NCBI RefSeq assembly: GCF_049554935.1
Contig: NZ_CP186926.1
Coordinates: 384,001 to 448,000 of the forward strand
DNA length: 64,000 nucleotides
From: Methanocaldococcus indicus
GTDB taxonomy: Archaea > AGJL01 > Methanococci > Methanococcales > Methanocaldococcaceae
Direction of reading: 5' to 3'
The notes under the pieces are model-generated. The model was not told the DNA's origin. It saw nothing but the letters and a program-made list of their open reading frames with translations, and did not search any database. Numbering within the stretch: the first letter of the stretch is position 1; each line of letters opens with the position of its first letter. Position numbers and translations under genes: made by a program. Below, piece after piece: positions 14,222 through 57,166 of the stretch.

Positions 14222-14296
14222 TGCTCCGGCCGGGATTTGAACCCGGGTCGCGGGCTCGAAAGGCCCGCATGATTGGCCGGGCTACACCACCGGAGC
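14222..14296 (-). tRNA. tRNA-Glu(TTC)
   Basis: Reverse complement GCTCCGGTGGTGTAGCCCGGCC...CGGGC-CTTTCGA-GCCCG...GGTTCAAATCCCGGCCGGAGCA; cloverleaf; CCA not encoded. Confidence 0.96.
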
Positions 14297-14306
14297 AAAA
14301 AAATAG

Positions 14307-14381
14307 CGGACCCGGGGGGATTTGAACCCCCGACCCCCGGCTTAGAAGGCCGGTGCCCTATCCAGGCTAGGCTACGGGTCC
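14307..14381 (-). tRNA. tRNA-Arg(TCT)
   Basis: Reverse complement GGACCCGTAGCCTAG...CCGGC-CTTCTAA-GCCGG...GGTTCAAATCCCCCCGGGTCCG; tandem with tRNA-Glu. Confidence 0.96.
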
Positions 14382-16471: not shown

Positions 16472-16562
16472 TGTTTCACCTTATAATAATCCTTAGTTTC
16501 TTTTTATTATAAAATGGTTTAGAACTTTTAATATATTTACTTTGTAATAATTTATATATTTG

Positions 16563-17003
16563 GATAACAATTATCACGCTAAAAATTTTTATTTTTTGAT
16601 TTTATTGGGTTTTAGTTGATTATTTTCAATTTAGAGGATTTTTAGGGAAATTCAGAGGGGTCTGTATTTTGAATATTTTATATATTCTAATTATATAATC
16701 TATTGAGATTTTTAGGTGTTTTATGTCGTTCCTTTTAATATTTGAAAATCTCCAATAAATAGAGTTGATTTTTTAATATAAAAAATTTTTAATTGAAAAA
16801 TATGGAATAGAAAGATTTTTATAAAAGTTCAAAGGTATATAAATGAATAGGGAAACCTACCCTTCAAAAAATTTTTATGTAGAAAAGCTTATATATGAGA
16901 AGGTCGTTAATGTTATTATGTCTAAAATGTGCCAATAAGCCCTTTTTGTTTCATAAATATTTTTAGAGAATGTCGTTAATGTTATTATGTCTAAAATGTG
17001 CCC
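16563..17003 (+). promoter_or_regulatory. CRISPR leader 1 (long AT-rich leader, BRE/TATA AAAAGCTTATATA near 16884-16896)
   Basis: Aligns by eye over its whole length with 56794-57166; immediately precedes array 1. Confidence 0.85.
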
Positions 17004-26504: not shown

Positions 26505-26819
26505 ATGAAAAATAAAGTATTCTATGGAGAAGGAATTAAAGTTGTCAAAGAACAAAGACCTGATGTATATGAAATTATAGCTAAACTAAATGATACTGTT
26601 TATTCTGGAAAAGTTTTAGATTATAAAACTTTAAAGTTAGTTGCTATTGCTATAGTAGCAGCTAAGTGTGATGAAAAAGCAACAGAAAAACAGATGAAAA
26701 GTGGAATGAAAGAGTTAGGGATTACAAAAGAAGAGATTATGGATGTCTTAGGGATTGTTCTATTAACAAGTGGAGTTCCTGCTTATGTAAAAGCTATGAA
26801 GATACTTGAAAAATTATAA
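26505..26819 (+). CDS. Carboxymuconolactone decarboxylase/AhpD-like protein
   Basis: LDYKTLKLVAIAI...GITKEEIMD...SGVPA. Confidence 0.8.
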   Translation: MKNKVFYGEGIKVVKEQRPDVYEIIAKLNDTVYSGKVLDYKTLKLVAIAIVAAKCDEKATEKQMKSGMKELGITKEEIMDVLGIVLLTSGVPAYVKAMKILEKL

Positions 26820-26833
26820 ACATTGTAAGAGTT

Positions 26834-27190
26834 ATGAATTACTTCCACAAAATTAACAGACTAAAAGAAGGAACTGATTTTGAGAAAAAACATACATCAT
26901 TTATTGATTGTAGAGATTCAGTAAAAGCAGATGAAATTTTTGAAGTAAGAATATATACAGAAGTTGAGCATCCTATGGAAGATAACCATTATATTCAGTG
27001 AGTAGAACTATTTATGAATGATATTTACTTAGGAAGGGCTGAATTTACCCAATTTTTAAAGCCAGAAGTTGTTTTTAAAGTAAAAGCTCCAAATGAAAGT
27101 CATAAAGGCAAATCTTTTAAATTAAGAGCTTTAATGAGATGTAACCTATATGGTGTTTGGGAATTTGAGAAAGAGGTTAAAATAGAATAA
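26834..27190 (+). pseudogene. Superoxide reductase (neelaredoxin, class II SOR) pseudogene
   Basis: Manual translation EKKHTS...EHPMEDNHYIQ*VEL...RCNLYGVWE; in-frame TGA at 26999-27001 where Trp is conserved; His ligand of CNLHG replaced by Tyr. Confidence 0.88.
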
Positions 27191-27267
27191 ATTCATAAAA
27201 TTTTTGACGAATTTAGAATGATAAATTAAATATATTAGTAATCTACAAACCATATTTTGGTGATAAG

Positions 27268-27426
27268 ATGGCAAAATATCAATGTATGTGTGGATGGATT
27301 TATGATGAAGATAAAGGAGAACCTTCTCAAAATATTCCACCTGGGACTAAATGGGAAGAACTACCAGATACTTTTAGATGTCCTCAATGTGGATTAGGGA
27401 AGAATGCTTTTAGAAAGATAGAATAG
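27268..27426 (+). CDS. Rubredoxin (52 aa, not in ORF track)
   Basis: [52 protein letters not shown]; RBS GGTGAT upstream. Confidence 0.93.
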   Translation: MAKYQCMCGWIYDEDKGEPSQNIPPGTKWEELPDTFRCPQCGLGKNAFRKIE

Positions 27427-27446
27427 ACATTAAAATTGATGTAACT

Positions 27447-27722
27447 ATGATAACAACAAACCATCCATTAAGTGAAGCTTTAAGAGATATTCAAGAGTTT
27501 AAGTTAAGATTAGCTGAATACTTCAAAGATAAGGATGTTTTTCCAATTAAAAATAGAACAGAATTAGCTAATGCTTTACCATGTGGAATATCATTACCTT
27601 GTGGAGACATTGAAGCAGCAGAATTGGTTAAATTATTAACTGATAATGACTTTCCAATTAAAGATGTTGAAGATTTAGTTATGAAGTTAGCAAATAAATG
27701 CTTAATTGAAAAGAAAGAATAA
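27447..27722 (+). CDS. Small conserved protein, MTH865-like
   Basis: [16 protein letters not shown]...[10 protein letters not shown] resembles the MTH865 family. Confidence 0.6.
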
Positions 27723-27732
27723 AGGTGAAATT

Positions 27733-28413
27733 ATGTGTGAAGAAATGAAAGAATGCTGCAAAGTTGTTATAGGACAAAAATTCCCAGAAGTAGAGGTTAA
27801 GACAACTCATGGAGTTATAAAATTACCAGATTACTATGTAGAGAAAGGGAAATGGTTTGTATTATTTAGTCATCCAGCTGATTTCACTCCTGTTTGTACA
27901 ACTGAATTTGTAGGATTCCAAAAAAGATATGACCAATTTAGAGAGTTAAACTGTGAATTAATAGGTTTAAGTATAGACCAAGTATTTAGCCATATAAAAT
28001 GGGTAGAATGGATAAAAGAAAAGTTAGGAGTAGAGATTGAGTTCCCAATTATTGCTGATGATATGGGAGAATTGGCTAAAAAGTTAGGAATGGTATCTCC
28101 TTATAAAGGAACAAATACAGTAAGAGCTGTATTTATAGTTGATGATAAAGGAGTTATAAGAGCTATCATCTATTACCCACAAGAAATAGGTAGAAACTTA
28201 GATGAAATAGTAAGAGCTGTTAAAGCCCTACAAACCTCTGACAAGTATGGTGTAGCTACACCTGCAAATTGGCCAGAAAATGATTTATTAGGTGATAAGG
28301 TTATTATACCACCAGCTTCAAGTATTGAAGAGAAAAAGCAAAGAGAAGAAGCTTGTAAAAAAGGAGAAATAGAATGTTATGACTGGTGGTTCTGCTATAA
28401 AAAATTAGAATAA
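27733..28413 (+). CDS. Peroxiredoxin (archaeal Prx6/AhpC type)
   Basis: [35 protein letters not shown]; ATG 27733 follows GGTGA RBS. Confidence 0.96.
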
Positions 28414-28452
28414 TTTAATAATCATTTCCTTCAAAAAATTATATTTTGGGGT

Positions 28453-28683
28453 ATGGGCATGGTTGAGTTGAATATAGTTAGTAAAAAAGAAGAAAAAAAG
28501 GAATTAAAAAAATACAGATGTAGAGTTTGTGGATGGATTTATGACCCTGAAAAAGGAGAGCCTTCCCAAAATATTCCACCTGGGACTCCTTTTGAGGAAT
28601 TGCCAGATAGTTTTAGATATAGTTTTAGATGTCCTGTTTGTAGAGGAAATGTAACAAAAGAATACTTTGAGCCAGTTGAGTAG
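28453..28683 (+). CDS. Rubredoxin with N-terminal extension and a 4-aa insertion
   Basis: [10 protein letters not shown]...[22 protein letters not shown]. Confidence 0.88.
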
Positions 28684-28707
28684 AAATATTATAATATTTG
28701 GGATACT

Positions 28708-28913
28708 ATGAAAAAAACTATTTTAAATCTTTTAAAAGCTTATGTGGGAGAAAGTTTAGCAAGAAATAGATATACTTGTTATGCAAAGAATAGCTAAGCT
28801 TAGAAAATAATTCTTTAAAAGATAAATTTGAATTCTTATTAGAGAATGATTTATTTGGACATATAAGTTTAAAGAAATATTTGGATGAAGGTTACCAAAT
28901 TATAACCTTTTAA
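28708..28913 (+). pseudogene. Rubrerythrin 5' remnant joined to the 3' end of another gene
   Basis: MKKTILNLLKAYVGESLARNRYTCYAK (rubrerythrin N-terminal GESxARNRY motif) then stop; followed by the fragment LENNSLKDKFEFLLENDLFGHISLKKYLDEGYQIITF*. Confidence 0.8.
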
Positions 28914-28951
28914 ATATTTTTTAAGATAATTAAATAATTTGGTGAAGATAT

Positions 28952-30121
28952 ATGATAAGAAAAATAAAAGAGAATATTTATTTTGTTGGAGCAATAGATT
29001 GGGATGTTAGGAATTTTCATGGATACAATACAGACAATGGGACAACATACAACTCTTATTTAATTTTAGATGAAAAAATAACTTTAATTGATACTGTTAA
29101 AGACCATAAAGCTGATGAATTAATCAACAACATAAAAAAATTGGTTAATCCTAATGATATTGATTATATTGTTATAAATCATGTTGAAAAAGACCACTCT
29201 GGGGCACTTCCTGAGTTAATGAAAATAACTAATGCAAAGATAGTAACAAATGATAAAGGAAAGGAACATTTAGAAGAGCATTACAACACTGAGGGTTGGG
29301 AGTTTTTAGTTGTTGATGATGAAGAAGAGTTAAATATTGGTAAAAGAACTTTGAAATTCTTTAAAACTCCTATGTTACACTGGCCTGAAAATATGGTTAC
29401 TTATTTAATTGAAGATAAAATTTTATTCTCAAATGATGCCTTTGGACAACATTATGCATCATCTCAAAGATTTGACTATGAAGTTAGAGGAGATATATTT
29501 CTCTATGCAAGAGAATACTTTGCAAATATTTTAATGCCTTACAAATTCTTAATAAACAATGTAATTGAAAAGCTCACTAAGTTAGAGATTGAGTATATAG
29601 CTCCTTCTCATGGAATTATCTGGAATAAATATATTGATGATATAATAAAGTATTATATTGATTGGGCTTCTGGAAAAGTTAGTAATAAGGCAGTAATTGT
29701 TTATGATACAATGTATAACTCAACTAAAAAAATGGCTTATGCTATTGCTGATGGATTAATAGAAGAAGGAGTGAATGTAAAAATATACAATTTAACTGAA
29801 ACTCCTGTAAGTAAGATTATATCTGAGATATTAACAGCCAAATATTTATTAGTTGGCTCACCTACCTTAAATAAAAACTTATATCCTGAAGTTGCTAAGT
29901 TTTTAGCATATATGGAAGGATTAAATCCAACAGGAAAAATAGCTGTTGCTTTTGGTTCTTATGGCTGGTATGAAGTAGCAACAGAGAAAATTAAAGAAGT
30001 ATTTAAAAGGTTAAATTATAAAATTGTAGATGATGATTGTTTAAAAGTTAAATTCTCTCCAAAAGAAGAAGATTTAAATAAATTATATGAATTTGGTAAG
30101 AATTTGGCTAAAATTGAATGA
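28952..30121 (+). CDS. fprA: Flavodiiron protein FprA (F420H2 oxidase-like)
   Basis: [36 protein letters not shown]; flavodoxin YDTMYNST and FGSYGW. Confidence 0.95.
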
Positions 30122-30791: not shown

Positions 30792-30913
30792 TTTAATATA
30801 ATTATGAGTTATACGCAATCTATTATAAAATTTTTACTATGGGAATAATATATAAAACTTTATATATTATAAAGTTACCTATAATACTCAGAAAACTTTG
30901 GAGGTGATAATAG

Positions 30914-31078
30914 ATGTGTGCCCCAATAGCAGTAACTGCTGGATTAGGAGCTCCAACATTAAGTGCAGTATTACCACAAATAATGGGAATGGTTTTTTTA
31001 ACAATTACTGGAGTATGGGCTATAGTTTCAGCAAAAGTTTCAACTTCAGTAAAATCTGAAGCAGTAGCTACTCAATAA
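30914..31078 (+). CDS. Small hydrophobic MCAP-motif peptide 1 (54 aa; putative precursor)
   Basis: RBS GGAGGTGAT; MCAPIAVTAGLGAPTLSAVLPQIMGMVFLTITGVWAIVSAKVSTSVKSEAVATQ*; below ORF-track size cut-off. Confidence 0.85.
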   Translation: MCAPIAVTAGLGAPTLSAVLPQIMGMVFLTITGVWAIVSAKVSTSVKSEAVATQ

Positions 31079-31120
31079 ATAGCCTTAATTAATTATAAAA
31101 TTTTTTGGAGGTGATAATAG

Positions 31121-31276
31121 ATGTGTGCTCCAGTATCTGCAACAATAGCAGTTAGTTCTTCAACATTATTAACAGCATTTACCTTAGCTCAAGTTTTAGG
31201 AATAGCAGCTATTATAGGAGCTGTTGGATTCATATTTAAAGATGTTTTAAACTCAAAAGTTGCAAATAGATCATAA
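31121..31276 (+). CDS. Small hydrophobic MCAP-motif peptide 2 (51 aa; putative precursor)
   Basis: Same RBS/start context TTTGGAGGTGATAATAGATGTGTGC; MCAPVSATIAVSSSTLLTAFTLAQVLGIAAIIGAVGFIFKDVLNSKVANRS*. Confidence 0.85.
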   Translation: MCAPVSATIAVSSSTLLTAFTLAQVLGIAAIIGAVGFIFKDVLNSKVANRS

Positions 31277-31318
31277 ATTTATTTATTATTATTTTTTTAT
31301 TTTTTTGAGGTAATACCT

Positions 31319-34269: not shown

Positions 34270-34289
34270 TGTTCAAAAATTTTTGAACA
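34270..34289. promoter_or_regulatory. Perfect 20-bp palindrome, probable operator of the GbsR-type regulator
   Basis: TGTTCAAAAA/TTTTTGAACA lies between TATA (TTTATATA ~34244) and the regulator start. Confidence 0.65.
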
Positions 34290-34309
34290 TTTTGAATATT
34301 GTGAGATAT

Positions 34310-34735
34310 ATGCAATATAAAAAGAAAGTTGTGGAGATGTTTGCAGAACTTGCTAAGCTACATGGATTGAACAAATCTGTTGGAGCAGTTTATGGGATCT
34401 TGTTTATTTTTGATAAGCCATTATCAATAAAGGACATCATGGAAGAACTGAAAATTAGCAAAGGAAATGTTAGTATGTCTTTAAGAAAGTTGGAAGAGCT
34501 TGGTTTTATTAAGAAAGTTTGGATTGCTGGGGAAAGGAAAAATTACTATATTGCTAAGGATGGATTTTCCTCAATTAAAGACATTGCAAAGAAAAAATAC
34601 AACATAATCTCTGAGTATTATAATGAGCTTGAGAATACAAATATTCCAAAAGAAAAGTTAGAAAAGATTGAAAGATTAAAAAAGATTTCAAATAAAATAC
34701 TGAAATGCTTGGAAGAATTAGAAAAAGAGTCATAA
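34310..34735 (+). CDS. GbsR/MarR family transcriptional regulator
   Basis: [35 protein letters not shown]; ATG 34310 follows GTGAG. Confidence 0.88.
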
Positions 34736-35902
34736 GTGATTGTTATGAAATTAAGAGATATAATGGAAAAAATTGGAAGTTTTTCAGCAACAAAACCATT
34801 TTTAGTCCTTGCTATTGTTCTTCTTATTACCTTAGCATTAGCCACTCAAATTCCCCACATAAAAAAGCAAACATCTTTTGAAAAAATGTTACCTCAAAAT
34901 CTCCCAGAAGTAAAAGAGATTTATGAGGTTAGAGATGAATTTGGTGGAACTGATGTAGCAATTATAGCAGTAAAAGTAGTTCCATCAGATTGTACAGATA
35001 AAGTTGTAGATATTAGAGACCCAAGGGTTTTAGAAGCTGTTAAAATGTTAGAAGAAAATTTAAGGACAATAGACGGAGTTACAAAAGTTACTTCTCCTGT
35101 TGATATTCTTACACAGATGAATGGAGGTGTAGTTCCAAAAAGTATAGACACAGTCAATAACTTACTCCAAAAACTTCCTCCATCTGAAAGAGAAAAGATG
35201 TTTAATAAAGATTACTCTATGCTAACAATTCAAGTATTCACAGATGTTGGAGCAGATGAAAAGAAAAATAAAGCTTTTGTCCAAGCCATGGAAGAAAGAA
35301 TAAAAGAAACTCCTTTTCCTCCAGGAGTTGAAGCTATTCCTACAGGAACTCCAGTTTTAAGAGCATTAATTGGAAAATTGATGAATGAAAGTCAATTCAT
35401 AACTACAGCTGTTGCAATGATAGCTATTCTCTTTATAATTCTTATACACTTCAAAAGATTAACATCTGTCCTATTATTAACTCCATTAGTTTTAGCTTTA
35501 ATTTGGACTGGGGGCTTTATGGGATTGTTTGGGATTCCATTAGATATGGCTACTGCTGCTGTTGGTTCTTTAGTTTTAGGGTTGGGGATTGATTATGGTA
35601 TTTACTTTGGAAGTAGATACAATGAGGAAAGAGAAAATGGAAAATCTCCAGAAGAATCAGCAATAACAACTGTTAGATTTGCTGGTTCATCAGTTTTAGC
35701 AAGTGCTGCCACAACAATTGCAGGTTTATTGGCTTTAACTATAGCTCCATTACCAATGATGGCAAACTTAGGAAAAGTTTGTGCCTTAGGGATAGCAAGT
35801 TGTTGTTTCTTAACTATATTCTTCCTTCCAGCAGTTTTAGTTATAGATGAGAAATACATTCATCCAGCAATTCAAAAACTCATAAAAATGATAAAAGGGT
35901 GA
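34736..35902 (+). CDS. RND/MMPL family exporter (HAE3-type half transporter)
   Basis: N-terminal TM, extracytoplasmic loop, TG.P, GLGIDYGI, SAATTIAG. Confidence 0.9.
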   Translation: MIVMKLRDIMEKIGSFSATKPFLVLAIVLLITLALATQIPHIKKQTSFEKMLPQNLPEVKEIYEVRDEFGGTDVAIIAVKVVPSDCTDKVVDIRDPRVLEAVKMLEENLRTIDGVTKVTSPVDILTQMNGGVVPKSIDTVNNLLQKLPPSEREKMFNKDYSMLTIQVFTDVGADEKKNKAFVQAMEERIKETPFPPGVEAIPTGTPVLRALIGKLMNESQFITTAVAMIAILFIILIHFKRLTSVLLLTPLVLALIWTGGFMGLFGIPLDMATAAVGSLVLGLGIDYGIYFGSRYNEERENGKSPEESAITTVRFAGSSVLASAATTIAGLLALTIAPLPMMANLGKVCALGIASCCFLTIFFLPAVLVIDEKYIHPAIQKLIKMIKG

Positions 35903-35907
35903 GATAG

Positions 35908-37557
35908 ATGATAAAAAAATTAATCTATTTCCTTTTAACTTTAATTGTAATTTCTTCAACCTATGCACTACAAATTTTAGAGCCAGAGTATCAGCCAAAA
36001 GTTATACATCCTGGAGATGATGTAGATTTATGGGTTAAAGTTGTTAATGACAACTACAATGACAACCAAAAAGTTGAAAACTTAGTTGTTAAAATTGTTC
36101 CAGAGTATCCATTTGTATTAAAGCAAGTAAATCCAATTAAAGGAGAGGTTATAATCCCTCAACTATATGAAGGTGAGCCATACACTTGCTACTTTAAACT
36201 TCATGTTAATGAAGGTGCAAAATCTGGAAGTTATCCTATATTAATTAAAGTTAGTTATGATGTAGTTGAATATAACAATGGAGAAAAGGTAGCTACTTAT
36301 CATTATGAATACTCTAAAAAATACTATCTAAATGTTTATGGTGTAGCTGATTTTGAAGTTAATGGTTTAGCAAACTTAATCCCTGGAAAAAATCAAAATG
36401 TAACAATTGAAATAAAAAATGTTGGAACAGGAACAGCTAAAAATGTAAATGTTTATATTGGCTATACTTTAAACTCTCAAAAAATTGGAAAAGAAAGTAA
36501 AACTGTCTCAATGTATGGAATAACTGAATCAAAAAATCAAGATATTATTTATCCAACACCAATACCTCAAAATAGTCCTATAACACCATTAGGAATAACT
36601 AAGTTTTATTTAGATTATTTAAAACCAGGGGATAGTAAAAAGATAGATGTTTTATTCCACACATCTCCAAAGTTAGTTGAAGGCTCCTACCCTATCCCTG
36701 TTGTTATAACATGGACAGATGAAGATGGAAATAAAAGAGCAGAATTGGTTAGTTTAGGTTTGTATGTTAAAGGAGATATTTCCTTAGGAATTAGTAATGT
36801 ATTGACTGACCCTAAAGAAATTAAACCAGGAGACACCTATGTAAGAATAGATGTAACAATAACTAACAATGGACATGCAGAAGCTAAAAATGTAAAACTA
36901 AATCTAATAACAAGCTATCCATTTAAGGATAGTTGGAGCAACTGTAATATAAAAGATGTTGGTAATCTACTTCCAGGAGTTTCTAAAGTAGCTTCTTTCT
37001 ATATAGATGTTGATAAATATGCTAAATCTGGAATTTATGAGTTGCCTATAAAAATAACCTATATGGATAGTGAGGATAACAAATATGAAACAACAAAATA
37101 TATAAAAATATATATTAAACCTAAGCCATTATTTGAGATTTTAACAAAAAATGTTACTGTTGTAGCTGGGAAAGACAATAAAGTTTTCATAAAAATAAAG
37201 AATATAGGAAATGAAAAAGCTGTAAGAGTTAGAGTATCTGCTATTAAAAATTCTGCTCAACCATTTGATTATCCAGTTAAATCTGATACAATTGGAACAT
37301 TAATGCCAAATCAAACAGGAACAGCATATATAGTTATACATCCTGATAAAAATGCTCCTTCTAAACCATACGATATAACATTAGAAATAAGATGTGCAGG
37401 AGATAGTGATATAGGAGATAACAATGTCTATACTTATCAAAAACCACTAAAAGTTATAATAAAAGGTTCATCTTCAAATGTAGGAGTTTATTTATTAGTT
37501 GGTGTGGTTATAATAATATTGATTGTAGGATATTTTGCTTATAGAAGAAGAAAATAA
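35908..37557 (+). CDS. COG1361 S-layer family protein
   Basis: Signal peptide, repeated Ig-like NxGxxxAxNV segments, C-terminal TM plus RRRK. Confidence 0.85.
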   Translation: MIKKLIYFLLTLIVISSTYALQILEPEYQPKVIHPGDDVDLWVKVVNDNYNDNQKVENLVVKIVPEYPFVLKQVNPIKGEVIIPQLYEGEPYTCYFKLHVNEGAKSGSYPILIKVSYDVVEYNNGEKVATYHYEYSKKYYLNVYGVADFEVNGLANLIPGKNQNVTIEIKNVGTGTAKNVNVYIGYTLNSQKIGKESKTVSMYGITESKNQDIIYPTPIPQNSPITPLGITKFYLDYLKPGDSKKIDVLFHTSPKLVEGSYPIPVVITWTDEDGNKRAELVSLGLYVKGDISLGISNVLTDPKEIKPGDTYVRIDVTITNNGHAEAKNVKLNLITSYPFKDSWSNCNIKDVGNLLPGVSKVASFYIDVDKYAKSGIYELPIKITYMDSEDNKYETTKYIKIYIKPKPLFEILTKNVTVVAGKDNKVFIKIKNIGNEKAVRVRVSAIKNSAQPFDYPVKSDTIGTLMPNQTGTAYIVIHPDKNAPSKPYDITLEIRCAGDSDIGDNNVYTYQKPLKVIIKGSSSNVGVYLLVGVVIIILIVGYFAYRRRK

Positions 37558-37573: not shown

Positions 37574-37632
37574 TGGCTCAGTTCGGGTAAGTATCATCAT
37601 TAAATCAGTTAACCCTCTTATCATCATTGCCA
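37574..37632 (-). ncRNA. Double-guide box C/D sRNA
   Basis: Minus strand TGGCA-ATGATGA(C)-TAAGAGGGTTAA-CTGA(D')-TTTA-ATGATGA(C')-TACTTACCCGAA-CTGA(D)-GCCA; terminal TGGC/GCCA stem; two 12-nt guides. Confidence 0.9.
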
Positions 37633-40600
37633 AAAATCTAAGGTTAATTGTCTCTTTTCTTTTTTTAATTCACTTTCTTTAATGCCTAAGGATTCCATAA
37701 TTCTTAAAACAGGAGGTAAAATTTGATTTTCAATATAATAGTTAATATCTATTTCCTCTTTTTTTACTTCTTCTGGAAGTTTTACTCTCTCACTTATATT
37801 TTTTCCTCCTTTAACTACAACATAACCAATAACATCTCCAACATTTACCCTTTTTCCTTCTTTTATTAATCTCTTAGCCAATACAACATGTGGAGCAGTT
37901 GTTTTATACTCATTTATTGGTTTTGTTAATTGAGTATATATAACTAAATCATCTATATTTATTTTATGCTCTCTTAAATTTTTTATAGCTTCTTGAATAA
38001 TTTTTTTAGCTTTTTCAATATTTCCCTCTTTTAATAATGCCTCTAAAACAGCTTTTTGTGTAGTTTTTGCAATATTTGCCCAATTTCTTCTCACATACTC
38101 TAATCCTTTAATTATAATATTTCCTTCTTCATCAATTAGAGCATATTTCTTTTTAGTTATAAATAAACCTCTTTTAAAATACCCCTCAAATTCTAATTCC
38201 ATCTCACCAGGAAGCTTATTATTTATATATGTTAAGAACTCTTTAACTTTTTTTATAAGTTCTTCTTTACTAATTTTTTCTTTATATATTGCATAAAAAC
38301 CATCAGTGTCTATATAGATAGCTTTAAATCCAAACTTTTCTGCTTCTTTTATAACCTCTTTTATATACTTTCTGCCTAAATAAGTTACTATTTCAGCACA
38401 TTCTTTTGAGTAAAATCTTGCTCTTGGATATGCTAAATAACCATAATGACTGTTATGAGCAAATATATTATTTACTAAGAAGTTCTCATTCTTATTGACA
38501 CTTAAATCATACACATATCCATTATACTCAAATTCTTCAATTTCTTTAACCTTATCAAGCATTAAATCTTCAACTTCTTTATAGTTTGGATTTATAGTTA
38601 TTTTGTATCCTCTATTTTTTACTGGTGTAAATCTTGCTTTTATTCCAACCAAACTAAACATTAAAAGAAGTTGGTGCAAAAATTTCTCTGTTTTTGCCAT
38701 AAAAACATTTTGTCCTTTTGAATAATGTTTTTTTGCTTTAATAAATCCTTCTATAAAGCTTTTTAAGATACTTTCATTAGCTAAGAATATAATTTCTGGA
38801 ATATGTCTCTCATTATTCTTAAATTTAAATATATATTTGAGTATTAAATAAACTATTTTATTGTTGATACAAATACCATCTTTTATAAAAGCACCTCCAC
38901 CAAATACATCCCTAAATACCTTTTGAAGTTCTTCCACTTCATCTTTATTACTTTTATAAACTATTGTTAAATATCTTGTTTCTTCTTTACCATGAATCTT
39001 TTTTAATCTACCTTTATTTGCAAAATAACCTAAAAATTTGGCAAATTTTTTATCTACTTTAAAAAGAGCTGGAATTTTAGCAGAGAAAGCACCAATAAGA
39101 TAATCCTCAAACTCTTCATCTGGAATATATTTTAAATAGTCCTTCAATCTTTTAAAGTTGATTGTAACATAATCTCCTCTAAAAGTTCCATAAGTTATAA
39201 TTTTGTCAATATATTCTTTGTAAATACTTAACCTTTCCTTATCAAGAACTTTTATTTCAATTTTGTTAATTTTTTTGTATATCTTACCATCAATTAGTTT
39301 TAGTTTATTTAAATGTTCAATACTCTCCTTAAAGATAAGATTTAATTTATTATTTTCAATACTTTCAATTGTTGATTTTAACTTAACTAAAAACTCCTTA
39401 TTTCTAAAAATTGTTAATGATAAGTCATCAACATCATCATCCTCTACATAAGAAAGCTTTTTAGGTATATTTATTATGATATTTTTACCAACAGGTTTTA
39501 ATTTCTTTGGCACAACTATATAATCTCCTACTTTTATATCTTCTCCTTTTACACATACAACTTTATTATTCTCAAATTTAAACAAACTATGCCCTTGAGT
39601 AATTTTTATAGTTCTTCCAGATTTTAATTTTATTTTATAAGCTTTACCTTTATATCTATGTCTAATTACTGCTTTGACTTTGTTTATAGATGATTTTTTA
39701 TTATCAATATTTAAAGTGAAAGATTTTAAATTATCATCAACTTCTAAAATCTCACTATTTTCACTATACTTTATTTTATCTTTATTTTTCTCTATTAAAT
39801 TATCTATATATTTCCCAATTTTTTCTAACTTTACACCGTCCTCTTCAATAATTATTAAGTTTTCCTCTGGAAGGATACTATTAGCTAAAATCTTTAAAGA
39901 AAGTTGCTCATAGTTTAGCAAATCTCTTTCCTTTTCATCTTTTGTTACTTTCATTTGCTCTTTTATTTTTTTTCTTCTATCTACCAAATCTTTTAATGTC
40001 TTTGGAATTAAACCAACTCTTCTCTTACAGAACCAATGATTAAGGATTTTCTCACTAACATCTTTACAACACTTACAGTCTAAGGTATCTGGTGAGATGT
40101 TGTAAGTTATAATTATAGAGGGATACAATGATTTAAAATCCAAATATACTAAATCATTAAATAATCCTTTTTCAGCTTTTACATATCCCCCTTCATAGCT
40201 CTCTAAAACTCTCCTTTTATACTCTTTCTCATCTGGCTTATTAGGAACTATTAAGTTATCTAAATAAGCTCTCTTCATTAATAGATACTCTACCATCTGC
40301 CCAGAGGAGTATCTTGTAATTTCAAATAGTGTTTGATTAACAATCCTTGAAAACATAACTTCCAAAGGTAAAAAATAAGTTCCTATTTTATATGTGTATT
40401 TAGCATCTTCTAAGCTGTATTTAACTAAAATACTATTTTTCTCTTTCCAAAATTTTCCAATATCTTTATGAGAAATTTTTAATTTTTCAATATTGAATAA
40501 ATTTAAAACAACATCTTCCAATGTGTATTTAGTTAATTTTAAAACTCTCTTAGCAATTGGGAATAAATCAACATGTATCCTTCCAGGAATATATGCCTTT

Positions 40601-41373
40601 TGTCCTTTAATTTTTATTTCCTCTCCTTCTCTACCTAATTCTAACTTTATGTTGTAGAGTTTAGCTCTCTCTTTTAAATATGGAAAATCAAAATAATCTC
40701 CATTGTATGTAAAAATTAAATCATATTTTTTTAGTTCTTCAATAACTCTTTTTATAAGTTCTTTCTCATCCTTAACTCTAACAACATTTTCACAATCAAA
40801 ATCTTTATAAGTTATAACTTTTCCTCCATTCTCATCCCAAAAAGAAGCCATTATTATGGCATCATTCTTAGGTTTTGGCTCATAACCTTCATTATAAACT
40901 TCAATATCAAAAGCCACCATTTTTAATTTAGGAATATCTCTACTAACAACTCTGTTATTTCCAAAATCAAAATAGGTCATAGGAACAATATCTTTATCTA
41001 TTAAGTATCTTTTAGCAAAAGGAATATCATGCTCATAAATTTCTTTGACATCTTCATACTCCTTAATCTTTCTTAACTTAGGAACTCTTTGAGGATGTAC
41101 AGAAATAATTTTTAAAATTTCTTTTTCTTCTTTTAATATCCTTTTTTTTACAATTTCTATCTTCTCAACAAATTTTAATAAATCTTCTTTTAATAAAAAT
41201 TCTTTAATTTTCTCTACATCATCTTTCTCTATCTTATCTTTATATAGTTCAACATAAAAATATGGTTTAAACTCCCTATCTTTCAGAATAGAGTTTAATA
41301 AATAAAGATATATAATAGCTCTATCATCAACTGTTTTATAGGTGTTATCTAATAGTACATCTATCATATTCAA
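37624..41373 (-). CDS. polB: Family B DNA polymerase with one intein
   Basis: AFDIE, YNGDYFD, DFKSLYPSII, KILAN|intein|SHYGY, YIDTDG, KKKYA. Confidence 0.97.
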   Translation of the reverse strand: MNMIDVLLDNTYKTVDDRAIIYLYLLNSILKDREFKPYFYVELYKDKIEKDDVEKIKEFLLKEDLLKFVEKIEIVKKRILKEEKEILKIISVHPQRVPKLRKIKEYEDVKEIYEHDIPFAKRYLIDKDIVPMTYFDFGNNRVVSRDIPKLKMVAFDIEVYNEGYEPKPKNDAIIMASFWDENGGKVITYKDFDCENVVRVKDEKELIKRVIEELKKYDLIFTYNGDYFDFPYLKERAKLYNIKLELGREGEEIKIKGQKAYIPGRIHVDLFPIAKRVLKLTKYTLEDVVLNLFNIEKLKISHKDIGKFWKEKNSILVKYSLEDAKYTYKIGTYFLPLEVMFSRIVNQTLFEITRYSSGQMVEYLLMKRAYLDNLIVPNKPDEKEYKRRVLESYEGGYVKAEKGLFNDLVYLDFKSLYPSIIITYNISPDTLDCKCCKDVSEKILNHWFCKRRVGLIPKTLKDLVDRRKKIKEQMKVTKDEKERDLLNYEQLSLKILANSILPEENLIIIEEDGVKLEKIGKYIDNLIEKNKDKIKYSENSEILEVDDNLKSFTLNIDNKKSSINKVKAVIRHRYKGKAYKIKLKSGRTIKITQGHSLFKFENNKVVCVKGEDIKVGDYIVVPKKLKPVGKNIIINIPKKLSYVEDDDVDDLSLTIFRNKEFLVKLKSTIESIENNKLNLIFKESIEHLNKLKLIDGKIYKKINKIEIKVLDKERLSIYKEYIDKIITYGTFRGDYVTINFKRLKDYLKYIPDEEFEDYLIGAFSAKIPALFKVDKKFAKFLGYFANKGRLKKIHGKEETRYLTIVYKSNKDEVEELQKVFRDVFGGGAFIKDGICINNKIVYLILKYIFKFKNNERHIPEIIFLANESILKSFIEGFIKAKKHYSKGQNVFMAKTEKFLHQLLLMFSLVGIKARFTPVKNRGYKITINPNYKEVEDLMLDKVKEIEEFEYNGYVYDLSVNKNENFLVNNIFAHNSHYGYLAYPRARFYSKECAEIVTYLGRKYIKEVIKEAEKFGFKAIYIDTDGFYAIYKEKISKEELIKKVKEFLTYINNKLPGEMELEFEGYFKRGLFITKKKYALIDEEGNIIIKGLEYVRRNWANIAKTTQKAVLEALLKEGNIEKAKKIIQEAIKNLREHKINIDDLVIYTQLTKPINEYKTTAPHVVLAKRLIKEGKRVNVGDVIGYVVVKGGKNISERVKLPEEVKKEEIDINYYIENQILPPVLRIMESLGIKESELKKEKRQLTLDFWQ
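38452..39879 (-). mobile_element. PolB intein (476 aa) with degenerate LAGLIDADG motifs
   Basis: Begins SILPEE, block B ITQGHSL, ends FAHN before Ser; motifs FLGYFANKG and FIEGFIKAKK lack the catalytic acidic residues. Confidence 0.92.
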
Positions 41374-51229: not shown

Positions 51230-51318
51230 GCAGGGGTAGCCAAGCCCGGCTAAGGCGCTGGACTTGAGATCCAGTGGGGCTCCGCCCCGCCTGGGTTCAA
51301 ATCCCAGCCCCTGCGCCA
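51230..51318 (+). tRNA. tRNA-Ser(TGA)
   Basis: GCAGGGG...CTGGA-CTTGAGA-TCCAG, long variable arm, GGTTCAAATCC, discriminator G, CCA encoded. Confidence 0.94.
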
Positions 51319-54791: not shown

Positions 54792-56780
54792 ATGAAAACA
54801 GAATTAACAAATGTTGATATATCTGCTATTGTTGATGAGCTAAAATTTATAGAGAATGGAAGAGTAGATAAAGCATTTCTAATAAGTAATGAGGAAAATA
54901 AAGAACTAATCTTAAAAATTCATATCCCTGAGAGAGGTAGTAGAGAGTTAGTTATTAGTGTTGGTAAATATAAATATATAACTCTAACAAATTATGAGAG
55001 AGAAAAACCTAAGCTACCTCCTTCTTTTGCTATGCTTCTAAGAAAGTATCTTTCAAATGCAAAAATAGAGAAGATTTATCAGTATAGTTTTGACAGAATT
55101 ATTGTTATTGAATTTAGAAAAGTCAGTAAGTATAAGTTAATAGTTGAGCTGTTTAAAGAAGGAAATATAATATTTACTGATGAGAATAACAATATTATTG
55201 TTCCTTTGAAAGTAGAAAAATGGAGCACAAGGATTATAGCTCCAAAACATGAATATAAATTTCCAGAACAAAGACCATTAACTCCTTACAACTTAGATTA
55301 TTCAATTGCCTATGAAATTTTTAGAGATTACTTTTTAGAGAATAAGGATGTTGAATGTGTTAGATTAGTTTCAAGGTTGTTAGGTTTAGCAGGACTGTAT
55401 GCAGAGGAGATATGTGAAAGAGCTAAGATAGATAAAAAGAAAAAAAATTTAACAGAAGATGAAATAAAAAATCTATTTTTAGCTGTTAAGAATTTCTTTA
55501 ATGATGTTTTTAATAACAGAGAGCCAAAGATTATATTAAAGGATAATCAGTTTATAGATGTTACTCCTATCAATTTATTAAAATATAAAGATTATGATAA
55601 AAAAGATTATGAGAACTTTATAGAGGCAGTTGATGACTACTTTGCAAATTTCTTAGCTTTAAAAAAGATAACAAAAGTTAAAAGTAAAGTTGAAAAAGAG
55701 ATAGAGAAGCAAGAATCAATATTAAAAAGACAGTTAAGAACTTTGGAAGAGTATAAAAAAGAAAGTGAAAAAAATAGAATAAAGGGAGATTTAATTTATG
55801 CTAATTATCAATTAATTGAAGAGCTTTTAAATGCCATAAATTTAGCAAGAGAAAAAAAGAGCTGGGAAGAGATTAAAAAGATTATAAAAGAAAATAAAAA
55901 TCATCCAATTTTAGGAATTATTGAAGATATAAGAGAAAATAAAGGAGAGTTAATAGTTAGATTAAAATATGAAGATGTTGAAGAAAGAGTAGTTTTAGAT
56001 ATAAGAAAAAATGCATTTGAAAATGCTGAATCTTATTATGAAAAAGCCAAGAAATTAAAAAATAAGTTAAAAGGTATTGAGGAGGCAATTGAAAGAACTA
56101 AAAAGAAAATTGAAGAATTGAAGAAAAAGAGAGATGAAGAAATAGAAGAGAAAAAACCTAAGAAGAAAAAGAGAAGAGAAAGAAAATGGTACGAGAAATT
56201 TAAATGGACAGTTATTGACAATTTCTTAATAATAGCTGGAAAAGATGCTATAACAAATGAAATAATAATTAAAAAATATACTAATAAGGATGATATTGTC
56301 TTTCATGCAGACATAACAGGAGCTCCTTTTACTGTTATAAAAACTAATGGTAGAGAAGTTAAAGAAGAGACATTATTAGAGGTTGCTAAATTTGCTGCTT
56401 CACATTCAAAAGCTTGGAAGTTAGGTTATGGAGCTATAGATGTGTATTATGTTAAACCAGAGCAAATATCCAAACAAGCTGAAAGTGGGGAGTATTTAAA
56501 AAGAGGAGCATTTATGATAAGAGGTAAAAGGAACTATATCAGAAATGTGCCCTTAGAGTTGGGAGTAGGAGTGTTAGAATATGATGGAGAAATTAAAATT
56601 ACAACTGCCCCAAAAAGAACATTAGAAGAGAGATTTTTAAAGTATGTTATGCTAAAACCATCTAATAAAGAGAAAGGTAAGGTAGTTAAAGAACTTAAAA
56701 ATATATTTAAGGAGTATGACTTAGATGATGAAGAAATTCTTTCAGTTCTTCCACCAGGAGGTTGTGAAATAGTTAAATAA
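54792..56780 (+). CDS. rqcH: Ribosome quality-control protein RqcH/NEMF (NFACT)
   Basis: FAMLLRKYL, FDRI, ELFKEGN, WYEKFKW, GKDAITNE, FHADITGAP, GAFMIRG. Confidence 0.92.
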   Translation: MKTELTNVDISAIVDELKFIENGRVDKAFLISNEENKELILKIHIPERGSRELVISVGKYKYITLTNYEREKPKLPPSFAMLLRKYLSNAKIEKIYQYSFDRIIVIEFRKVSKYKLIVELFKEGNIIFTDENNNIIVPLKVEKWSTRIIAPKHEYKFPEQRPLTPYNLDYSIAYEIFRDYFLENKDVECVRLVSRLLGLAGLYAEEICERAKIDKKKKNLTEDEIKNLFLAVKNFFNDVFNNREPKIILKDNQFIDVTPINLLKYKDYDKKDYENFIEAVDDYFANFLALKKITKVKSKVEKEIEKQESILKRQLRTLEEYKKESEKNRIKGDLIYANYQLIEELLNAINLAREKKSWEEIKKIIKENKNHPILGIIEDIRENKGELIVRLKYEDVEERVVLDIRKNAFENAESYYEKAKKLKNKLKGIEEAIERTKKKIEELKKKRDEEIEEKKPKKKKRRERKWYEKFKWTVIDNFLIIAGKDAITNEIIIKKYTNKDDIVFHADITGAPFTVIKTNGREVKEETLLEVAKFAASHSKAWKLGYGAIDVYYVKPEQISKQAESGEYLKRGAFMIRGKRNYIRNVPLELGVGVLEYDGEIKITTAPKRTLEERFLKYVMLKPSNKEKGKVVKELKNIFKEYDLDDEEILSVLPPGGCEIVK

Positions 56781-56793
56781 TTTTAAATATTCA

Positions 56794-57166
56794 GATGACA
56801 ATTATCACGCTAAAAATCTTTATTTTTTGATTTTATTTAGTTTTAGTTGGTTATTTTTAATTTAAAGGATTTTTAGGAAAATTCGAAGGGGTCATTATTT
56901 TGAATATTTTGTATATTTTGATTATATAATTTATTGAGATTTTTTAGAGATTTATGTTGTTTCTTCCAATATTTGAAAATCCCTGATAAGTTGGTTTAGT
57001 TTTTGGAAATTGGGACTTTTTAATTGAATAATAGGAAATAGAAAGATTTTTATAAAAGTTCAAAGGTATATAAATGAATAGGGAAACCTACCCTTCGAAA
57101 ATTTTAGTACCAAAAAGCTTATATATGAGAACGTTGCTATATTATTATGTCTAAAATGTGCCTCCT
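56794..57166 (+). promoter_or_regulatory. CRISPR leader 2 (homologous to leader 1)
   Basis: Shares ACAATTATCACGCTAAAAAT...GGTATATAAATGAATAGGGAAACCTACCCTTC...AAAAGCTTATATATGAGAA...TTATGTCTAAAATGTGCC with 16563-17003. Confidence 0.87.

Follow-up and report, generated by a model that had tools for sequence, protein, structure and literature searches.

The window, that is, the whole stretch of 64,000 nucleotides of Methanocaldococcus indicus DNA analysed here, contains a compact group of genes on its forward strand (Table 1). It comprises two short peptides (A and B), a radical SAM enzyme, an S-component membrane protein and a TPR protein, and this five-part cassette is conserved in other archaea. 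Boxes resembling the BRE/TATA-like promoter 5′ of peptide A are present at a comparable distance in relatives. Directly 3′ of 43 of 53 B peptides lies a T-run (a count made without a control), and the T-rich tract in the window is a possible partial terminator that would yield more peptide than enzyme.

Table 1. Features of the peptide cassette, with positions counted from the first letter of the window.
Feature	Position	Strand	Remarks
BRE/TATA-like archaeal promoter AAAACTTTATATA, ~48 nt 5′ of peptide A	30854..30866	+	recognised in the sequence; putative function
25-nt block, copy 1	30897..30921	+	covers the RBS, the start codon and the next codons of peptide A
Peptide A, 54 aa	30914..31078	+	tip MCAPI; TM helix ~19-37; subfamily that tracks the TPR protein
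25-nt block, copy 2	31104..31128	+	covers the RBS, the start codon and the next codons of peptide B
Peptide B, 51 aa	31121..31276	+	tip MCAPV; TM helix ~20-38
T-rich tract 3′ of peptide B	31277..31306	+	putative partial terminator
Radical SAM enzyme, 274 aa	31319..32143	+	CxxxCxxC (C19/C23/C26)
Membrane protein, 190 aa	32115..32687	+	six helices, ECF S-component fold; start overlaps radical SAM gene
Exported TPR solenoid (TPR-A), 471 aa	32746..34161	+	N-terminal signal or anchor helix

Genes that by eye are of oxidative-stress type (rubredoxins, a peroxiredoxin, a flavodiiron protein) lie directly 5′ of the cassette at 26505-30121. The TPR gene is followed at 34283-37557 by a regulator, an HAE3/MMPL transporter and a CARDB-repeat surface protein, none of which was seen beside the cassette in relatives. 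Further along, a family B DNA polymerase (37624-41373, minus strand) carries an insertion of ~476 residues in a conserved motif, an intein by appearance, and the end of its gene is overlapped by the Rfam C/D-box RNA sR3 (37576-37631, minus strand). Two copies, 85% identical, of a ~390-bp element with about a dozen copies genome-wide are found at 16546-16933 and 56776-57162; short spaced repeats follow the copies, which have the appearance of CRISPR leaders and arrays. The same 37-bp stretch occurs at both 16897 and 16966, and three tRNAs are located at 14222-14381 and 51230-51315.

The two peptide genes begin with the same 25 nt, TTTGGAGGTGATAATAGATGTGTGC. An identical block before both ORFs had been noticed in a preliminary description of the locus, and it was confirmed here over its full 25 nt. 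The 17-nt core of the block occurs twice in the whole 1.44-Mb genome, both times at this site. Past codon 5, 612 of 2000 shuffles score as high as the comparison of A with B at the DNA level, and 1078 of 2000 at the protein level. At the ten block positions that are free of constraint (RBS spacer and wobble positions), the average number of matches is 7.4 for A and B from the same genome and 4.9 for A and B taken from different genomes, and as much agreement is reached in 17 of 5040 permutations; within genomes it amounts to 9-10 sites in four of the seven genomes and 4-6 sites in the other three. Gene conversion between neighbouring A and B genes is the likely cause of the matching block, and genome-specific base preference may contribute to it. 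The shared 5′ end would then reflect constraint on the RBS and the tip, together with probable gene conversion between neighbours.

Both peptides are real genes under purifying selection: pN is lower than pS in every one of 42 orthologue pairs, which are not independent. The view that A and B are paralogues is borne out. The preliminary description also had their conservation confined to the RBS and first codons. This is true of A against B (17% identity after residue 5) and untrue within the orthologues of each peptide, for which mean identity after residue 5 is 45% (A) and 49% (B). The family profiles of A and B align over 41 columns (HHalign probability 96.7), mainly through the first nine. 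Peptides were labelled by gene position, B being the peptide directly 5′ of an enzyme or S-component gene. In a tree of 65 peptides over 53 columns, all 24 A peptides split from the other 41 with a support of 98/99, and profiles made from the bodies alone in other lineages, this order being left out, assigned 13 of 13 of its peptides correctly. The body is therefore not a variable region, since it carries subfamily identity; of the ‘variable TM helix’ proposed earlier, the single TM helix stands and the variability does not. A and B are old, separate and subfunctionalised subfamilies, each conserved along its length.

Each window peptide has one hydrophobic 19-mer (KD 1.78 in A and 2.18 in B) with positive charge C-terminal of it, and the helix of B is non-amphipathic (moment 0.12). 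A wider set of 91 distinct peptides was selected by a pattern that itself demands Met, Cys and Pro. All of them have A, T or V at residue 3, residue 6 is S, A, T, Y or G and never R, and 73 of the 91 have no second Cys. The tips are near-same across subfamilies. Charge on the C side exceeds that on the N side in 86 peptides, which by the positive-inside rule suggests an N-out topology. Pfam and NCBIfam contain no family for the window's peptides apart from one generic TM match, NCBIfam gave stray matches alone for 38 B peptides, and a query of the ESM Atlas with peptide B returned no usable match. No published account of the peptide system was found in a search of main texts, chiefly of journals that need no subscription.

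A likeness to podovirus gp14-like ejection proteins, raised in the preliminary description, was not upheld: the best PHROGs match has an E-value of 0.0096 and occurs in 1-3 members, and a viral motif scan was negative, with four matches, none with an RBS and a TM body. A viral scan using the enzyme gave three remote matches and nothing closer. The context of the cassette is chromosomal, and the absent phage match leaves room for a shared tip chemistry.

Homologous small MCxP ORFs occur in other archaeal genomes. When 40 genomes of this order were compared, the present one being among them, one and the same set of eight was found to carry the membrane protein, peptide B, the TPR protein and the enzyme, and peptide A is present at all eight cassette loci; the search with peptide B gave a ninth, weak match of 16 columns in the outgroup genome. 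The chromosomal site of the cassette varies among these relatives, and the TPR gene swaps ends. A metagenome scan yielded 35 loci, 32 of them with close enzymes; MCxP peptides are present at 30 of these 32, and the other two loci start within the enzyme gene. The S-type membrane protein was found in 36 of 401 genomes sampled around one genome (G041). When clustered at 90% identity, the radical SAM clade has at least 120 close members (E < 1e-102), and the minority of these clusters that are named are all archaeal (Methanococci, Archaeoglobus, Methanophagales, Thermoproteota and Hydrothermarchaeota). Homologues are carried by named Methanocaldococcus and Methanothermococcus species. In assembling these loci, the peptide of L105 was reassigned from B to a TPR-linked type (D, see below), and L123 (a broken S match) and L070-L072 (remote enzymes) were left out as being without a cassette.

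A hydrophobic MCxP ORF lies upstream of 53 of the 55 distinct enzyme genes with sufficient upstream DNA, and the two enzyme genes without one come from genomes in which B directly precedes the S-component gene. Linkage of a precursor gene to a maturase gene, a criterion for RiPPs, is thus seen at 53 of 55 loci. The preliminary description took MCAP for a recognition or modification motif, and a shared MCxP start linked to a radical SAM gene fits that reading. As an alternative it proposed that an exposed N-terminal Cys is acylated or cyclised. Initiator Met is removed before a small residue, so that the Cys might alternatively be exposed and lipidated or acylated, with the enzyme incidental. 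The Cys at position 2 upstream of those same 53 genes agrees with such a fate; we nevertheless hold it to be very improbable, given that a TM anchor is already present, that no acyltransferase recurs among the neighbours and that the enzyme strictly co-occurs.

The enzyme matches PF04055 with 44.6 bits against a cut-off of 29.5 and is a member of the radical SAM superfamily. Its C-terminal domain is of the twitch type, with C216, C234, C269 and C272. The three Cys of the CxxxCxxC motif and the four C-terminal Cys are all invariant in 36 of 36 homologues; the C-terminal pattern is present in 120 of 120 homologues among the matches listed, and PF13186 is annotated on many. These features place the enzyme, by its sequence, in the twitch subclass with a layout for one auxiliary cluster. 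There is no room for an N-terminal RRE, because the SAM motif begins within ~31 residues of the N-terminus. Its best NCBIfam match is TIGR04317 (E 9.7e-34), of which it is not a member (117 bits against a cut-off of 380). Its best solved relatives act on small molecules or lipids, with BlsE, BtrN and similar enzymes heading the PDB match list. The gene is split over two frames at L018 8054-8883 and L113 4650-5490 (genomes G024 and G364), through decay or sequencing error. A second, distinct radical SAM family recurs beside the cassette at L108, L109, L116, L118, L121 and L138.

The membrane protein had no match in a Pfam sequence search. Its predicted structure has six helices (pLDDT 85.7); the best Foldseek match is YkoE (E 5.5e-3), and the best 14 matches of a wide structure search are all ECF S components. 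The model aligns with YkoE over 156 residues (Z 14.9, rmsd 3.6) and with NikM over 155 (Z 9.8, rmsd 3.6) from NikM residue 32 onward; the alignment with CbiM starts at residue 36. NikM's metal-binding loop and first helix are thus missing from the model, a correspondence that is not specific because all vitamin S components lack the first helix of NikM. The alignment of S proteins has no conserved His. Its conserved aromatics are W65, W95 and W136, a Cys found in 37 of 44 homologues is Phe in this genome, and of an AxxxA-type motif in helix 1, A27 is kept in 40 of 44 and A23 poorly. No T or A genes lie within the core cassette, and the T components of this genome are found only in its two cbiM/nikM operons, so the S protein would either borrow these or act alone.

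Peptide B is genetically tied to this S component. The B subfamily is found directly 5′ of a radical SAM or S-component gene, and at eight loci the S gene follows B immediately, without an intervening enzyme gene. In five such genomes searched for the enzyme, it is encoded elsewhere in three, is a fragment at a contig end in one and was not found in one (G234); a sixth also has the enzyme gene. A single S gene, at L122, is without an adjoining peptide. In a complex model the S protein and peptide B reached a score of 0.37, the best control 0.00; no interface was given, contact agreement was at least 91% and partner pLDDT at least 63. The mark used is reached by 116 of 157 solved pairs and 2 of 215 mismatched pairs; at scores of up to 0.60 it is reached by 18 of the 157 solved pairs and by both mismatches. 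The model therefore supports the pairing weakly, as its score falls in the band that holds both mismatches. No sequence homology to CbiM N-termini was found for peptide B (probability 0.1) or for peptide A.

Peptide A, for its part, is genetically tied to the TPR protein. TPR-A is modelled with confidence as a solenoid, its structural matches being generic TPR solenoids alone, and it has conserved His residues (His92, His219, His388) and a C-terminal His. In 29 genomes chosen for carrying the S component, to which neither G302 nor further genomes with a complete cassette contributed loci, peptide A and TPR-A are both present in seven, A alone in two, TPR-A alone in one and neither in 19; in the lone TPR-only genome the contig ends where A would sit. 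The co-occurrence has a Fisher's p of 2e-4, which overstates the association because many of the 19 genomes with neither look closely related. A is thus present in nine of the 29 genomes and absent from 20, and most of the S loci of the 29 hold B. At some loci A is encoded on the other strand, or next to the gene for the TPR protein. A 35-aa ORF at L108 7387-7494 joins a start like that of peptide A to an end like that of TPR-A, and is probably a deletion scar left when both were lost together. TPR-A genes unlinked from the cassette also occur. A second TPR-A copy in genome G024 (L023 6388-7761) has no peptide nearby and lies ~1.4 kb from an apparent molybdate/tungstate ABC transporter, judged by eye.

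This distribution bears on the suggestion, made in the preliminary description, that the pair forms a two-peptide pore. Hydrophobic paralogues that lie side by side and match in length and RBS invite such a comparison, but A is missing from most S-component genomes and may be encoded on the opposite strand or next to the TPR gene. The bodies are also conserved across lineages, B is non-amphipathic, and genes for export or immunity are lacking, as is a leader. We consider a pore-forming toxin extremely improbable.

Further peptide types occur beside other exported proteins. Type C peptides are divergent from a TPR gene, and type D peptides follow every TPR gene in tandem runs, with up to three complete units in a row; TPR-type peptides far from any S gene also have the enzyme alongside. 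At L161, L164 and L165 (G187:C33, G414:C23, G349:C115) tandem exported TPR paralogues are each followed by a near-identical MCxP peptide, and in L161 and L164 these arrays are 3′ of FmdE and radical SAM genes. Another MCAP peptide type is convergent with an exported protein at L114 11961-12131, L163 2984-3142 and L165 1476-1646; the exported protein facing it in L114 is a PD40 beta-propeller.

These arrangements would also suit peptides that are unmodified accessory or anchor subunits, comparable to CbiN/NikN or to trans-anchors for exported proteins, with the enzyme making or salvaging a small molecule for a YkoE-like S component. The TPR proteins and the propeller beside a peptide have no C-terminal anchor of their own, whereas the majority of exported FmdE proteins are self-anchored and come without an additional peptide. 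Such a role for the enzyme is in keeping with the best fold match (YkoE), with three conserved Trp and no His in the S protein, and with the small-molecule enzymes that lead its PDB list. What it leaves unexplained is why every subfamily carries the MCxP tip and why the enzyme stands beside a peptide at 53 of 55 loci, even those of TPR type; we regard it as fairly unlikely.

The genes around the cassette repeatedly concern metals. Recurring neighbours include exported FmdE with HxHxC motifs, CbiM/Q/O, DUF4198, DUF364, HypA, family-5 binding proteins, FeoAB, and ATPases that we take to be CooC-like (from their Pfam CbiA match). FmdE structures are described as binding Zn or Ni through the HxHxC motif, with genes mostly beside metal transporters (PMC2954224). 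Of 29 locus clusters, 16 have metal-related neighbours, or 10 if FmdE and TrmO are not counted, against 8.8% of random windows of this genome; 8 of 37 clusters, with less than 3 kb of flank, were excluded from the count. The NikR signal reported for delta-proteobacteria is GTGTTAC-N13/14-GTAACAC (PMC545781), and half-sites resembling it were found in 12 of 27 upstream clusters, against 2.8 in shuffled sequence and 15% of 274 control regions. Paired sites occur in five of the 27, two of them overlapping RBS-like sequence. A near-perfect TGTTAC-N13-GTAACA lies at ~1695-1719 of L037, between a TPR gene and the peptide divergent from it, and another is in L047. A scan for spaced palindromes gave scattered enrichment and no single clean motif. 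The neighbour families and site patterns were chosen after the data had been seen, and related genomes are not independent. The present genome has a NikR gene and neither a paired site nor an FmdE homologue; the cassette flank examined holds no gene for metal transport.

No protease, exporter, kinase, regulator or acyltransferase is among the recurring neighbours of the cassette, and this weighs on two further explanations. The first is signalling at the cell surface, in which the matured tip would be a tethered ligand or tag for TPR, propeller and S-component receptors, with no metal transport. TPR solenoids and propellers are peptide-binding folds, TPR-peptide pairs occur in tandem, and this genome has no dedicated ECF module. 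Near-same tips would nonetheless make a poor identity code, and the genes that do recur handle metals rather than signals, so that we think signalling improbable. About as improbable is a classical RiPP, whose modified core would be cut from a TM follower, freed as a metallophore or pheromone, caught by the TPR protein and re-imported by the S component. The conserved N-terminal core, the dedicated enzyme, an importer-type protein and a possible excess of peptide transcript are as such a pathway would have them; a releasing protease and an exporter are what it lacks, and subfamily-specific bodies and one peptide gene per TPR protein would be needless if the tip were the product.

The explanation that we favour treats A and B as subfunctionalised, single-pass, N-out membrane peptides of archaea, acting through maturation of the tip, docking and Ni/Co capture. 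The cytoplasmic twitch radical SAM enzyme would probably recognise the common (M)CAP[IV] tip and oxidise or cross-link its Cys. It is quite likely that the TM body positions the tip at the outer surface and determines with which protein it pairs 1:1, the S component for B and the exported TPR protein for A. Evenly balanced is the last step, in which the matured tip would be a ligand arm in trans and the module would capture Ni/Co as a trace metal, or else some metal chelate, to be taken up. The tip arm would serve the six-helix S component as the built-in N-terminal loop and helix serve NikM and CbiM. The chance that the whole chain holds falls just short of even. A broader generalisation is more doubtful: the peptides may represent a class matured by radical SAM chemistry and never released, whose TM paralogues plug the tip, one per partner, into unrelated surface proteins (an S component, TPR proteins, a propeller) for modular Ni/Co capture by anaerobic archaea in the manner of a split NikM. 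As part of that joint and equally doubtful reading, one enzyme would make the Cys-Ala-Pro tip metal-binding or reactive.

Methanogens and their relatives are heavily dependent on nickel and cobalt. If the favoured explanation is true, this module of peptide and enzyme, with its link to an S component, would give them a new route of metal capture, and the modification would be a new kind for archaeal peptides. The chemistry is directly testable, because a short peptide that can be synthesised is the candidate substrate and homologues occur in named species.

Several known systems resemble parts of the cassette. Class IIb bacteriocins have a cleavable leader, a dedicated exporter/peptidase and an immunity gene, and their two peptides are encoded together; here no leader precedes the motif, no exporter or peptidase is among the recurring neighbours, and A accompanies the S component in only nine of 29 genomes. 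The best structural match of the membrane protein is to the vitamin S components of the YkoE type (PF09819; PDB 5EDL), which likewise have six helices; YkoE itself is not known to work with a peptide or an enzyme. With SPASM/twitch RiPP systems (e.g. SkfB sactipeptides) the cassette shares a small Cys-containing ORF directly 5′ of the enzyme gene. It differs from them in having no leader, RRE, protease or exporter, in the position of the motif at the extreme N-terminus, and in peptides with a TM body, several paralogues and distinct partners; leader/RRE recognition with proteolytic release was rejected, there being no room for an RRE and no recurring protease.

Among enzymes, the tungsten-oxidoreductase maturase TIGR04317 is a model of 349 positions, against 274 aa here, and the cassette has no tungsten oxidoreductase. 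The substrate motif of anSME is CxPxR, which the cassette tips resemble in reading C-[A/T/V]-P; the Arg is absent from all 91 peptides, and anSME has two auxiliary cluster sites against one in the cassette enzyme. The reaction of anSME is described as oxidation of Cys or Ser to formylglycine (PMC10114670). BtrN is reported to have one fully ligated auxiliary cluster (PMC6231123), and the four invariant C-terminal Cys of the cassette enzyme are placed as for that cluster; the similarity of the two enzymes is remote (E ~2e-6).

The closest parallel is with NikM and CbiM (TtNikM2, PDB 4M5C; CbiMQO, 5X3X), which have the S-component fold in common with the membrane protein. The latter is not a member of that family, being without its own Met-His loop, extra helix and a conserved His as fourth ligand. 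In the structural account of NikM, residues 1-9 and the helix 10-34 place the N-terminus outward and provide three of the four nickel ligands (PMC3945884), metal ligands coming from residues 1-2 of this outward N-terminus with its one extra TM helix (PMC3945884). Here the S gene is linked to a one-helix peptide whose Met-Cys tip is predicted to face outward, an arrangement analogous rather than homologous to that of NikM: the putative arm is a separate gene, position 2 is Cys and not His, a radical SAM gene is attached, and paralogous arms would serve TPR proteins.
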